Sequence record: ON185589.1
Length of the DNA stretch: 46,060 nt
DNA from: Escherichia phage EC147
Strand: one strand, 5' to 3'
Below the pieces are notes generated by a model. That model did no database searches and had not been told where the DNA came from. It saw only the letters and a list, made by a program, of their open reading frames with translations. How positions within the stretch are numbered: position 1 is the stretch's first letter; each line of letters starts with the position of its first letter. Positions 26,334 through 44,173 of this stretch are shown here, piece after piece. A program made the position numbers and the translations under genes.

Positions 26334-26855
26334 TTAACTTTCCAGCGTTGTTGGCTTGTCGAGTAACGCCGCCACCGCCTCTTTGAGATCTGCAATTTCA
26401 GATTTAAGTGTTTCGATCTCCTCTTGTTGCTTGTCAACTTTTGCCTTTTGCTCCTTGATTGCGTTAGTGTCTGCTTTAACCTGATTAGCCAGATCTTGCA
26501 ACTGTTTTAGGTCAAAGTTTTTGAAAAATTCAATAGCTTCCTCGATCTGAGTTTCTTTGCTTTGATAGTAACGCAGAGTTTCCGCAACATCTTGCGCAAG
26601 GCCGTCAACCGTGATTGAGTCATGCAGCAAAATAATGTAATTGCTTCGCCCAATTTCAGCGCCTCCAGTTGTGATGGCGCGGATTTGTGTATCGCTGATA
26701 ACTTCACTGATCACAGCCGCTTGAAATGGCGCATCAATGAAAAAGATTGTTGCACCAGGGCGAATGAGCGTTAGTTGCTCTCGCCATTTCGTGTCGTATC
26801 CAGTAATATAACCTTGAGCGTCCATTGACGCTTGTCCGGTTCTGTAAATTGCCAT
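26334..26855 (-). CDS. hypothetical coiled-coil protein (possible fiber/structural protein)
   Basis: ATG at 26855 after GGGAG; upstream part of ORF track frame lies inside a terminator; 173 aa; C-terminal third predicted coiled-coil. Confidence 0.55.
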
Positions 26856-26910
26856 GCGTTTTCTCCCATGTTGCATGTTAATGTCAATGCAGATAATAGC
26901 ATTTGCTAAG

Positions 26911-26938
26911 GCAAAAAAAAACCCCGCAATGCGGGGTA
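26911..26938 (-). terminator. minus-strand terminator after primase gene
   Basis: minus-strand CCCCGC-ATT-GCGGGG followed by a 9-U run. Confidence 0.7.
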
Positions 26939-26954
26939 AAAGTAGCAGTGACAT

Positions 26955-40349: not shown

Positions 40350-40394
40350 AATATACCAATCAGAGGCGCATCGGTTTTAACAAAAAGTGCTATT
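40350..40394 (-). promoter_or_regulatory. conserved element + N18 + TATATT
   Basis: minus-strand AATAGCACTTTTTGTTAAAAC + 18 nt + TATATT. Confidence 0.55.
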
Positions 40395-40430
40395 TCTCAA
40401 CTGGCGATTATTCCATCTATTCAATTAATC

Positions 40431-40928
40431 AGGAATAACAGGAATAACTTATTCGAGATCACCTTGATTGTGAGATCTTGAGTTTGATCAATTTTAATCA
40501 GTTGATTAACTTTTTGTGTGGAGGGGATAGAGAAACACGGTCCTCTTGCATCCTTTCCGGTAATCCTAGCGCGCGCATCTGTTATCTTCTGTTATCGCTG
40601 TTATGCGTGTTATTCCGGCGTGGAATCGCATAACAAAAAATAACAAGAAAAATCCATATAACATACTAAAAAATAAGGATTATTTATTTATATGTATCTA
40701 TAAATTATTATCTGTTATGTGTGTTATGTGGGTGTATTGATAACTGATGTATTTTTGGTGGTTGTGTGTGGTTGTGTGTTGGTTGGTATGTATATATAGG
40801 GGTGGGGCGTATCCGCGCATTTTTAGATAACACGCAAAAACAACATTGATTTATAAGAAAAAAAACGCGAATCTTGTTATCTTCTGAAAAGATAACATCG
40901 GAAAACCGCCAGTAACAATAAAAAACAG
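40431..40928. repeat. iteron-rich, AT-rich intergenic region (candidate origin / control region)
   Basis: tandem AGGAATAAC x2 (40431-48); GATC x3 (40457-89); palindrome TAATCAGTTGATTA (40495-508); TGTTAT x4 at 9-10 bp period (40580-614); more TGTTATC/GATAACA copies; GTTGTGTGTG x2 (40761-80). Confidence 0.6.
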
Positions 40929-40958
40929 TTGACACGCCAGGTGGCGGTAAATGATAAT
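40929..40958 (+). promoter_or_regulatory. sigma70-like promoter for plus-strand early operon
   Basis: TTGACA (40929-34), 18-nt spacer, GATAAT (40953-58). Confidence 0.5.
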
Positions 40959-40989
40959 GCAGTCACTGAGTCACGAGGGGGTATAAAGC

Positions 40990-41460
40990 ATGAGTGAATC
41001 TGTATTTACAAATGAGCTTCGCAAGGTTGCGATTGCGCTCGCATCTGGATTGCACGAATCGATCCAGATACCTGAAAGATGGGTAAGGCAGCACCTGGAG
41101 GGCAAGAAGTCAGCCAGCAATGCTGGATCATATATCCGTCAGATTATGGGGCGCGTTCCAGAAGTGGCGGAGAAGGGGAGAGTTTCAGTTTCAAAGAAAC
41201 CTTACGGCCCTGATAGCGAATATTTCGGAGAAAATTACTTTGATGTGGCGATTGTTAGTGCGCCGAATCGCAGGGTGTACAATAAGGCCGCGCTTGAGAA
41301 GGCTGTAGCGAAAGCAAAACGCCAGGTTGCTGAGTCGATGCTTAAAGTCTCACCAAACCTAGCGAACTACTCGCCAGATGAATATGAAACACTTGCTAAG
41401 GCGATCGCAGACTTTCACGCGATCATTAAAGAAACATATCTTAACGATGAGGGGCAATAA
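40990..41460 (+). CDS. hypothetical protein
   Basis: 156 aa, RBS GAGGGGG. Confidence 0.5.
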   Translation: MSESVFTNELRKVAIALASGLHESIQIPERWVRQHLEGKKSASNAGSYIRQIMGRVPEVAEKGRVSVSKKPYGPDSEYFGENYFDVAIVSAPNRRVYNKAALEKAVAKAKRQVAESMLKVSPNLANYSPDEYETLAKAIADFHAIIKETYLNDEGQ

Positions 41461-41461
41461 A

Positions 41462-41710
41462 ATGAGCAAACTTACTCTTGATGAACTGATGGAAAAAATT
41501 GATGAAGTGGGCTTTAACAAACTGGTTGATTTCCACTTGACCGCATGTGAAATCACCGCACAGGAGTTTAGCGACATGCTATCTGATGCGAGCGAGATTT
41601 ATACAAGCCTATGCGGAAGAGAAATCAAAGTCATTGAAATTGAAATGCCTGGAGATCCGGTATTTGCAAGGCTTGTGGCTGCATTCGATGAGGAGAATGT
41701 TGGACTCTGA
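41462..41710 (+). CDS. hypothetical protein
   Basis: ATG 41462 after GAGGGG, 1 nt after upstream stop; 82 aa (internal Met of ORF 41378..41710). Confidence 0.5.
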   Translation: MSKLTLDELMEKIDEVGFNKLVDFHLTACEITAQEFSDMLSDASEIYTSLCGREIKVIEIEMPGDPVFARLVAAFDEENVGL

Positions 41711-41715
41711 GCGGA

Positions 41716-41760
41716 AATAGCACTTTTTGTTAAAACGCCAGGCGCAAAACCTGGCATAAT
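41716..41760 (+). promoter_or_regulatory. conserved element + N18 + CATAAT
   Basis: AATAGCACTTTTTGTTAAAAC + GCCAGGCGCAAAACCTGG + CATAAT. Confidence 0.55.
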
Positions 41761-41792
41761 AGCCTCATCGAAACGAGATTGAGGAAACAAAA

Positions 41793-41978
41793 ATGGCACG
41801 TCGCATCACCAAAGACCTTAAAGTCCTGAACAAAGAAAACGTAGTTAAAATCCTGGTTATCTGGGGCTACAACGAAGAAGCAGCAAAGCAGAAGGTAGAG
41901 GCAGGTTATGAACTGGCTGTAAAAGCAATGCCAAACGACGACGCCAAAGGCATTGCAAACTATGTGGCTTTCTTTTAA
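41793..41978 (+). CDS. hypothetical protein
   Basis: 61 aa, RBS GAGGAAA. Confidence 0.45.
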   Translation: MARRITKDLKVLNKENVVKILVIWGYNEEAAKQKVEAGYELAVKAMPNDDAKGIANYVAFF

Positions 41979-41993
41979 TTAGCAGGTGAATAA

Positions 41994-42179
41994 ATGAAAA
42001 CGAAATTAGTCCATAAATCAGAAATCAAGATCGGCGATACTGTGATTCACAACGGCGAGCTTAGAACGGTTGGCAAAGAGTCAATAAGCAAAGATGAATT
42101 TATGGGGATCTTGTTGTTCGGTGACTCTTATCGTCTTGGTTATAAAATGGTTGAGCTTGTGGAAGAGGTAAAATTCTAA
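41994..42179 (+). CDS. hypothetical protein
   Basis: 61 aa, RBS AGGTGA. Confidence 0.45.
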   Translation: MKTKLVHKSEIKIGDTVIHNGELRTVGKESISKDEFMGILLFGDSYRLGYKMVELVEEVKF

Positions 42180-42223
42180 ATAGCACTTTTTGTTAAAACT
42201 CAAAAACGATAACCAGGCATAAT
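42179..42223 (+). promoter_or_regulatory. conserved element + N18 + CATAAT
   Basis: AATAGCACTTTTTGTTAAAAC starting at the last base of the upstream stop; CATAAT 42218-23. Confidence 0.55.
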
Positions 42224-42278
42224 AAATCACATAGGGCGGCACGGCATCGCCCAGTTAAACCAATCAGGAGAAAGCACC

Positions 42279-42596
42279 ATGTTAAAACTTGCTGACATTA
42301 AATACCCGATCACATTCGAATCTCGCGGCGTTGGTCATTTCATGTTTACCGACGAGAAGACATGCACTAAGTTTAACGAATACGGAAGCCCAAACGCTTC
42401 AACAATGGAGATTGAACACTTCATTGAAGCGCACAATAAACACTACAACTCACTCAGAGACTACGCTTACGCAATGCCAGGATACACATGTTTTCACTAC
42501 AAGCCATATAAAGGCCAGGTGTTACCAGTGCGCTCACCGGAACGCGCAGAGATTCCGATGGTCAATATGAAAACCTGCGACTACAAAAAGCTGTGA
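42279..42596 (+). CDS. hypothetical protein (N-terminal domain paralogous to next ORF)
   Basis: 105 aa, RBS AGGAG; ADIKYPITF..AHNK resembles DNIKYPIVF..AHNK of ORF 42622; stop TGA is created inside a 16-bp tandem duplication. Confidence 0.5.
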   Translation: MLKLADIKYPITFESRGVGHFMFTDEKTCTKFNEYGSPNASTMEIEHFIEAHNKHYNSLRDYAYAMPGYTCFHYKPYKGQVLPVRSPERAEIPMVNMKTCDYKKL

Positions 42597-42610
42597 CTAC
42601 AAAAAGCTGT
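42579..42610 (+). repeat. perfect 16-bp tandem duplication (GACTACAAAAAGCTGT x2)
   Basis: copy 1 at 42579-94, copy 2 at 42595-610; spans the stop codon at 42594-96; 16 is not a multiple of 3. Confidence 0.9.
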
Positions 42611-42621
42611 GGTGCTTAAGC

Positions 42622-43176
42622 GTGGATAACATCAAGTATCCGATTGTTTTTCATTGTGGCGGTGGTTCAACAATCAGGTTCACATCGCGCGACAATGGCG
42701 TTTATAGCAATGGTCAGAAATCAGAGTTGAAAGTTGATTTCTTTGTCAACGCTCATAACAAATTCAATCCACACAATAAAGAAGATAAGGTGTACTACGT
42801 GGAAGACATTACAAAACACTTGTTTGGAGAAACACCATTCGGCGGCGGTAAGTCATATTTTGCGCAGGCGATAGATAACGCTGCGCGACGCATTGGTGAG
42901 CAGATTCACAGTCAAACAATTAAGGCGTCTGGTCTTGTTGCGAAAGACGTCGTAAGTCAGGGCGCTATTGAATACATGCCAGTTGCCGCCACGCTAAAAG
43001 GCGTCCAAATTGCGGATGGCACATGGTTTGAATTAACGGCAAAACCAAAGACTATCGAGATTCATGATGACGTTGTTATCCTCCTACTTCACTATGGCGG
43101 CGCTAAAAACCGGACTGTTGCAGGTGAGATCAGCATCAAGCGCGGGACGATGGTTAAGTGGAAGGTCAAAGTGTAA
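42622..43176 (+). CDS. hypothetical protein (GTG start; paralogous N-terminus)
   Basis: 184 aa; no in-frame ATG near the start; GTG at 42622 with GGTG 7 nt upstream; reading frame is continuous with the upstream ORF if one repeat copy is removed. Confidence 0.5.
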   Translation: MDNIKYPIVFHCGGGSTIRFTSRDNGVYSNGQKSELKVDFFVNAHNKFNPHNKEDKVYYVEDITKHLFGETPFGGGKSYFAQAIDNAARRIGEQIHSQTIKASGLVAKDVVSQGAIEYMPVAATLKGVQIADGTWFELTAKPKTIEIHDDVVILLLHYGGAKNRTVAGEISIKRGTMVKWKVKV

Positions 43177-43219
43177 ATAGCACGAATTGTTAAAACTCAA
43201 ATGTGGGGCCAGGTATAAT
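43176..43219 (+). promoter_or_regulatory. conserved element variant + N17 + TATAAT
   Basis: AATAGCACGAATTGTTAAAAC + 17 nt + TATAAT (43214-19). Confidence 0.55.
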
Positions 43220-43249
43220 GGCCCTACTTTCAACGAAGGAGATAAAACG

Positions 43250-43480: not shown

Positions 43481-43688
43481 GCGCGTTAAGCACAAGTTTA
43501 TTGATAATCATCGCGATGCACTTGAGGTATATAAGGTTGGTGATCTCGTGTTTATTGATGGCACGTTTGAAGGTGGACGCAGGCCTGATTTTAGGTCGAT
43601 ACTTACCGTTGACCAAGTGCGCAAGCTGGCGGATAAGTTAAATGATCTGGCAGATGAAATCGAATACAAGCAAATCCATTTTAATTGA
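43467..43688 (+). CDS. hypothetical protein
   Basis: 73 aa, RBS GAGGTGA; overlaps upstream ORF. Confidence 0.45.
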   Translation: METNKRVKHKFIDNHRDALEVYKVGDLVFIDGTFEGGRRPDFRSILTVDQVRKLADKLNDLADEIEYKQIHFN

Positions 43689-43699
43689 TAGGTTTGATA

Positions 43700-44173
43700 A
43701 TGAAAAAATACACTTTCGAACTGTGGGGCAAGAAGTACGAATTAATGACCAGTAAGCCGATTGTTATCGTTGACCTGGACGGCACACTATCGGACGGATC
43801 GCATCGTTTGCATTTGCTGCCAACTGAAAACTTGCACCTTACGGAATCGTGGCGCGAGTTTAACAGGGCCGCCGCCGGAGATTCACCGATTAAAAGCTAT
43901 CGTAAAATGTTGATTAACGCATTCGAAAAGGCAGCGCTTGAGCGTGGTTGGAATGACTCATTTCACACAGCAAACTGTATCCGCCGTTACGGATTCAAGA
44001 ATTGCCGCTCATGGGCGCGTGAAATGGCTTCATGGTATGATCTTGATGCGCATTACCTTGATATGGATTGCGCCCTGGTTGAAATGATTGAACAGGCAGC
44101 ATTAGAGGATCGACCATTAACGCAATCTGATTTTGACGATTTTGTGCGCGATGAAATTTATTATATGAGCTAA
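43700..44173 (+). CDS. HAD-superfamily phosphatase (polynucleotide 3'-phosphatase-like)
   Basis: HAD motif I VIVDLDGTLSDG (DxDGT); ATG 43700 (ORF track 43685 is TTG); 157 aa. Confidence 0.55.
   Translation: MKKYTFELWGKKYELMTSKPIVIVDLDGTLSDGSHRLHLLPTENLHLTESWREFNRAAAGDSPIKSYRKMLINAFEKAALERGWNDSFHTANCIRRYGFKNCRSWAREMASWYDLDAHYLDMDCALVEMIEQAALEDRPLTQSDFDDFVRDEIYYMS

Follow-up and report, generated by a model that had tools for sequence, protein, structure and literature searches.

A 16-bp tandem duplication that probably split a conserved early gene of Escherichia phage EC147 in recent time

The sequence of Escherichia phage EC147 (ON185589.1), analysed here as one stretch of 46,060 nucleotides that we call the window, carries the 16-bp unit GACTACAAAAAGCTGT twice, head to tail, at 42579-42610, at the point where one open reading frame ends and shortly before another begins in a different frame. 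Are these two genes, one gene broken by a recent mutation, or one state of a copy-number switch that toggles between fused and split products? The first-pass annotation of this DNA had left the choice between the last two. The reading that we favour, and hold to be probable, is that a recent, isolate-specific slippage duplication has split, or made a pseudogene of, a conserved but dispensable early gene.

The window extends from the start of terS to about the end of the JakobBernoulli record, so it is probably a complete 46-kb genome. It belongs to a T1-like coliphage (Drexlerviridae, Tempevirinae) with the Hanrivervirus phages as its nearest relatives; identity to JakobBernoulli is 94% over the region of interest, and identity to damhaus is 94.6% over the right half of the genome.

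A perfect duplication within one reading frame

The features on which the analysis turns are the following, all on the + strand.

42177..42225: promoter-like element TAAATAGCAC..TTGTTAAAACTCAAA..CCAGGCATAAT, upstream of the gene and missed by the consensus promoter scan
42266..42270: Shine-Dalgarno sequence AGGAG of the ancestral gene (now of ORF1), duplex -7.4 kcal/mol
42279..42596: ORF1, 105 aa, native ATG; the N1 module, cut within the junction motif C100-D-Y-K-K-L-W-C107-L
42570..42579: upstream microhomology AAAACCTGCG, matching AAAAGCTGTG (42586-42595), exactly 16 nt downstream, at 8/10 positions; probable slipped-mispairing site
42579..42594: copy 1 of the 16-bp unit, spanning codons D101-Y-K-K-L105 and the opening base of codon 106
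42595..42610: copy 2 of the 16-bp unit, inserted relative to every relative examined; its leading GA completes the ORF1 stop codon
42622..43176: ORF2, 184 aa, in the +1 frame, with a GTG as the first available start; the N2-C part of the ancestral protein
43174..43222: second promoter-like copy, directly 3' of the gene; TTAAAA, 18-nt spacer, TATAAT, 10/12 matches

That the duplication is perfect, as had been claimed from the letters, was borne out by direct comparison of the two copies (zero mismatches) and by Tandem Repeats Finder, which reports 42570-42611 as a repeat of period 16 with 2.6 copies and a score of 70, the top-scoring tandem repeat in the window. Given the size and composition of the window, a perfect tandem duplication of a 16-nt unit is expected by chance at about 1.5e-5; the longest perfect tandem unit was 12 in 100 first-order Markov simulations, and the runner-up among the real units in the window is 10.

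The consequences for the reading frame are likewise as described in the first pass. The ORF1 stop TGA (42594-42596) is made up of the final T of copy 1 and the GA of copy 2, and the downstream part is moved into the +1 frame, where ORF2 is found. When one copy is deleted in silico, a continuous ORF of 882 nt is obtained, encoding 293 aa and reading ..CDYKKLWCLSVDNIKYP.. across the junction. This repaired product is 96% identical to JakobBernoulli bas07_0071, whose length is also 882 nt.

Relatives carry a single copy

In all six relatives whose loci were compared (JakobBernoulli, EC167, SFP17, PGN590, egaa, and Henu8), the homologous position is occupied by a single CDS of 882-906 nt, and the DNA alignment of the six shows a clean 16-nt gap facing one of the two copies. 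With a 92-nt query that had the duplication at its centre, 96 phage records were matched. The best 60 of these 96 are one-copy, because each match is 16 nt shorter than the part of the query that it covers (76 vs 92 nt or, in three rows, 74 vs 90); a two-copy record would have taken the first rank in this search. Neither the exact 32-mer nor its codon-degenerate version was found in three large collections of viral, metagenome, and genome sequences, and the exact ORF1 product had no match in other public assemblies, such that the allele rests on one sequence. At the protein level, the family retrieves 324 database matches, and 118 of the 120 listed are 289-310 aa long, the other two being 250 and 374 aa.

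With relatives in the one-copy state and no second record of ORF1, the duplication belongs to this genome alone, and the ancestral state is that of the fused gene. The first pass had proposed that related isolates be compared for one-copy and two-copy alleles, and no two-copy relative was present among those examined. The arrangement that it had set against a recent split, two copies with a conserved ORF2 start in all relatives, is the opposite of what was found, namely one copy and, as described below, an unconserved GTG. Copy number of the repeat does not vary among the relatives: zero genomes examined have two or more copies, and the site is no repeat tract in them.

A modular protein cut at a conserved junction

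The intact 293-aa protein has the architecture N1-N2-C. The homology of the N-termini of the two ORFs, already noticed by eye, was recovered by BLASTP (E = 1e-6, 31% identity over 51 aa) and corresponds to a shared N-terminal domain of ~50 aa. Residues 107-292 match positions 1-173 of PHROG 7116 (a 173-position profile of unknown function) with E = 2.7e-75, a match that covers the ORF2 part alone. A search of 1.8 billion representatives returned many proteins that stand alone; these are 165-190 aa long, begin with MLKLxDIKYPITF, and align with residues 108-291.

By tblastn, the N1-N2-C long form is present in 101 phage records (Tempevirinae), and N2-C alone is found in T1 (Orf70, 161 aa), TLS (gp06), and many other Drexlerviridae, with T1 Orf70 aligning to residues 108-292 of the repaired protein at 38.7% identity. 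ORF2 shares with T1 Orf70 (CPTT1_008), TLS gp06, and PHROG 7116, a family of uncharacterised early Drexlerviridae proteins, both the N-domain (MLKLxDIKYPITF...HN) and a small beta-barrel C-domain (IEDMP...IEVHDD...NIKRGT). Unlike T1 Orf70, the Tempevirinae proteins, including that of the ancestor of the window, carry a paralogous N1 in front, with the extension DYxYAMPGYTC.HYKPY..CDYKKLWC. In the window, it is this N1 fusion that the frameshift has broken. Other natural module sets also exist: P0163 is N1-C, P0096 and BabyEgg have an extra module, and forms with three N-modules occur.

The AlphaFold2 model of ORF2 has a pLDDT of 81.7, with domains at residues 1-65 and 105-184 and a disordered stretch at 69-102; the full 293-aa protein, modelled with a shallow alignment, reached a pLDDT of only 39.5. 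In an alignment of 31 sequences, C100, D101, K103, K104, L105, W106, C107, and L108 are invariant, which makes the N1/N2 junction something other than a loose linker. The DNA at the junction still varies synonymously among relatives, and conservation therefore acts on the protein level. Of the junction motif CDYKKLWCL, ORF1 retains CDYKKL and lacks WCL, and ORF2 read from its GTG lacks all of it.

A version of the N-domain of ~60 aa (MLKLxDIxYPITF...F..HN) is joined to unrelated C-termini in P0160 and P0161, where Pfam finds nothing. Given these fusions to unrelated C-terminal regions, the N-domain acts in phage proteins as an N-terminal module that is mobile. Searches with the family against Pfam, NCBIfam, and PDB by sequence profile gave no significant match, and a literature search on this gene or phage found nothing relevant; the phage KanT1 described in PMC13164509 is a Tunavirus whose genome is not that of the window.

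Start signals and predicted expression

The target gene is flanked by two copies of a ~45-bp promoter-like element, TAAATAGCAC..TTGTTAAAACTCAAA..CCAGGyATAAT. Since the element is repeated right after the gene, the gene would form its own transcription unit, and the arrangement suggests that the early genes here are each served by a separate promoter, all of one conserved type. With its native putative promoter and a good Shine-Dalgarno sequence, ORF1 should be made at normal levels.

The start of ORF2 was thought to have a weak ribosome-binding site, and the calculation agrees. The GTG lies 25 nt past the ORF1 stop and has a Shine-Dalgarno duplex of -5.2 kcal/mol, which falls at the 30th percentile of the ATG, GTG, and TTG positions of the window; among the + strand genes, the eight whose Shine-Dalgarno sequence can be recognised range from -6.2 to -12.3, and the starts at 43700 and 44440 are weaker, at -4.5 and -3.1. 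Out-of-frame GTGs are located nearer to the ORF1 stop than GTG 42622 is. The codon is also not conserved, being CTG in EC167 and in the SLDN variants within the 31-sequence alignment. With a duplex at background level and an unconserved codon, GTG 42622 is no evolved start. We infer from this that expression of ORF2 is low and that the N2-C part could be delivered solely by low-level termination-reinitiation or by rare +1 slippage on the A5 run. The net effect is most likely a loss or strong reduction of function.

Probable origin by slippage, and timing

A slipped-strand origin is suggested by the microhomology upstream of the repeat. When the one-copy sequence is reconstructed, exactly 16 nt separate AAAACCTGCG from AAAAGCTGTG, and the two account for the partial third copy seen by Tandem Repeats Finder; a match of at least 8/10 at an offset of 16 is reached at just 0.067% of window positions, counted empirically. 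Streisinger slipped-mispairing is the established model for such events and was classically described in phage T4. Applied here, a nascent strand ending in AAAAGCTGTG would re-pair with AAAACCTGCG and copy 16 nt anew, which would give the observed duplication.

The event also appears to be recent. The two copies are still identical, and there is no further lesion in the rest of the gene. Compared with three intact relatives, dN/dS is ~0.15 in both halves of the repaired gene, which implies that the gene still worked, and was kept by purifying selection, until a short time before the sampling of this genome.

The sequence of events that we propose would then begin with slipped-strand mispairing between near-identical 10-mers 16 nt apart in a Hanrivervirus-like phage, and the resulting 16-bp duplication would frameshift the 293-aa N1-N2-C accessory gene at the N1/N2 junction. 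Translation from the native promoter and ribosome-binding site would end after L105 and yield a truncated N1 protein, with N2-C made only where ribosomes re-initiate, inefficiently, at the chance GTG that follows 25 nt later, and the gene would be wholly or largely inactivated. Against inactivation stands the fact that ORF2 has a natural stand-alone architecture and that damhaus is cut at the same codon, so that the split may be tolerated or even selected.

The same gene is disrupted in other phages

Independent disruptions of this gene were found in at least nine other phages or assemblies, as follows.

damhaus (MN850602.1; L008, 2501-3409): W106 changed from TGG to TAG, a point mutation without duplication; the product also ends in ..CDYKKL
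SRR7352061 (51-kb Logan assembly, L012): 5-bp deletion after codon 65
MUNK18 metagenome contigs (L009-L011): 1-bp deletion at codon 73
P0164: stops after G79
P0165 and P0166: frameshifted after R85 and T70, respectively
haarsle (L016): TGA at codon 52
tonnikala (L022): one A lost from an A5 run at codon 163, giving 204 + 93 aa
2019SD1 (L021): several frameshifts, together with a large internal duplication that repeats the whole N2-C segment in tandem

In the annotation of damhaus, the orthologue appears as two genes, damhaus_55 and the one after it. When 27 long-form records were sampled at even spacing along the tblastn ranking, three proved to be disrupted; each of these was isolated on MG1655 and comes from the same Danish wastewater study (3/9 of such isolates vs 0/18 of the others). 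Jahat_MG145 and BabyEgg, which feature counts had suggested as further split genes, are both intact.

Lesions this varied are not what a mutational hotspot or a dedicated switch would be expected to leave, and they point to plain loss of function; because relatives repeatedly lose the gene by unrelated lesions, it appears to be dispensable, or occasionally disadvantageous, during isolation and propagation. A more specific idea is that on some hosts selection disfavours the fused protein that carries N1 and so accounts for the knock-outs, with cuts at the junction restoring N2-C by re-initiation. We regard this as a long shot; if true, the fused N1 protein could trigger or be sensed by a host defence, or cost fitness on K-12. 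A pattern of lesions confined to N1, as if selection acted on N1 only, was considered and rejected as ascertainment bias, given the tonnikala lesion at codon 163 and the length and E-value filters of the search.

Alternative explanations

Given that the allele is absent from every other data set examined, one has to ask whether it could be an artefact of assembly or finishing, in which a permuted contig was closed and re-oriented to terS with a short end-overlap left behind as an internal repeat. T1-like genomes are circularly permuted, and the window begins exactly at the terS start codon, which means that the record was re-oriented. Nevertheless, an 8/10 microhomology at the exact repeat period would occur at a random contig-end position with a probability of only ~7e-4, and microhomology in register with the repeat fits biological slippage and is left unexplained by a contig-closing error. 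Sixteen is also no usual k-mer overlap in assemblers, and among the 70 JakobBernoulli proteins matched in the window, this one alone is split between frames, so the consensus is not indel-prone. An artefact thus seems improbable to us. The same holds for an adaptive or tolerated fission, in which N1 would be made alone and N2-C by termination-reinitiation at GTG 42622, bringing back the ancestral stand-alone form. ORF2 does align end-to-end with T1 Orf70, TLS gp06, and the representatives of 165-190 aa that start at query residue 108; its model shows two confident domains (pLDDT 81.7); in-frame natural variants have other module counts (P0163; P0096 and BabyEgg); and damhaus is cut at the same codon, 106, through a different mutation. 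The fission would, however, remove W106-C107-L108 from both products despite their invariance and depend on an unconserved GTG whose Shine-Dalgarno sequence is not above background and which has out-of-frame GTGs nearer to the stop. The other disruptions, at codons 52, 66, 70, 73, 80, 85, and 163, lie off the module boundary, and a shared stop position arising by chance among ~10 alleles has by our own estimate a probability of roughly 0.1-0.2, which is not improbable. On balance we consider fission unlikely.

The copy-number switch, the second half of the alternative posed by the first-pass annotation, would be a reversible exchange between one copy (fused) and two copies (split, or off) as regulated bet-hedging. 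The slippage that makes a perfect tandem duplication can also undo it, and one-copy revertants must therefore arise at some rate. However, the unit is long and present twice only, unlike the repeats of contingency loci, no relative examined has two or more copies or a repeat tract at the site, and elsewhere the gene is inactivated by point mutations and small deletions, with nothing that marks this site out. A switch is accordingly very improbable, and it is the recent gene-splitting mutation that is supported. The split could also be bypassed during translation: a +1 shift within copy 1, for instance by tRNA-Lys on AAAAA at 42585-42589, would give a product of 298 aa reading ..CDYKSCDYKKLWCL.., a near-normal and still fused protein with five inserted residues. 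From 42571 onward the +1 frame is open, and the A5 run would permit re-pairing. On the other hand, no stimulatory element is evident, the shift needed is +1 and not the efficient -1 type of A-AAA-AAG sites, and the arrangement is unconserved, with relatives having one uninterrupted ORF; the yield would be expected at the level of translational error, and we give this bypass hardly any weight. A -1 slip at the A-AAA-AAG-like site was ruled out because the frame required is +1.

Comparison with known kinds of event

Recent slippage, our preferred explanation, places the locus beside the Streisinger-type frameshifts. It shares with them a perfect head-to-tail short duplication with a length not divisible by 3, an imperfect copy of the end of the unit at the repeat period, an immediate frameshift and stop, and occurrence in one isolate only. 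Compared with the classic cases (1-5 nt), the unit here is longer (16 nt) and lands on a domain boundary; nothing essential differs. With the simple sequence repeats of contingency loci, the locus has in common a frame that depends on copy number and is in principle reversible by slippage, but here there are two copies of a long unit, no polymorphism among relatives, and no ancestral repeat tract. It also resembles the fission and fusion of modular phage proteins, as the family occurs in N-C, N1-C, N1-N2-C, and three-N-module forms and the lesion parts N1 from N2. In contrast to the natural stand-alone forms, which have their own ATG, an MLKL... start, and a ribosome-binding site, ORF2 has a fortuitous GTG only, and the lesion has destroyed the conserved junction motif. 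Events of this kind are well known; this instance is new.

For annotation, the result means that the ORFs 42279-42596 and 42622-43176 are best entered as a single disrupted gene, be it a pseudogene or a split gene, and not as two genes. The locus provides a clean, datable case of microhomology-mediated tandem duplication in a virulent phage, and it draws attention to an uncharacterised Drexlerviridae early protein of modular build, N-C in T1 and N1-N2-C in Tempevirinae. Purifying selection in nature together with repeated knock-out in isolates makes this protein a candidate host-interaction factor, although the evidence shows no more than dispensability.

Other differences in the genome

The relatives of the window have genomes of ~51 kb, and two further genes, those for the lateral tail fibre and the kinase, are shortened here by large deletions, not by frameshifts. 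The duplication would thus be one of several accessory-gene losses in this isolate.

The lateral tail fibre ORF (26334-26954, - strand) encodes at most 206 aa, or ~173 aa from the probable start MAIYRTG, compared with 741 aa in JakobBernoulli. Its N-terminal 151 aa and a short C-terminal piece are kept, and 1.7 kb of the JakobBernoulli gene is missing between them; the only other short tail fibre of this kind, slightly longer, is that of aalborv (46.66 kb). In the ORF at 43685-44173 (162 aa), the first 66 aa of a polynucleotide kinase/3'-phosphatase are in frame with a bas07_0083 homologue. The DLDGT HAD motif is kept, and the junction, at ~43891-43897, corresponds to a 3.07-kb deletion relative to JakobBernoulli 45866-48937; it is spanned by 0 of 50,697 phage records.

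Near window position 40394, ~1.3 kb of JakobBernoulli (41093-42417; bas07_0061-0065) is absent, and the following 1.1 kb (40604-41715) is replaced by unrelated sequence, with a bas07_0067 homologue that is just 26% identical. Between terS and terL, an extra ORF of 163 aa (522-1013) overlaps the start region of terL and is absent in JakobBernoulli; from its sequence (..HIDGDSLNNNPLNLR..TKATNNQN..), it looks like an HNH homing endonuclease. Lastly, tandem repeats are clustered at 40430-40785, between divergent gene blocks (CAGGAATAA in 2 copies, CTGTTATCG in 3.8, TGTTATGTG in 2, and GTGGTTGTGT in 2.7), and this intergenic cluster may be a regulatory or origin region.
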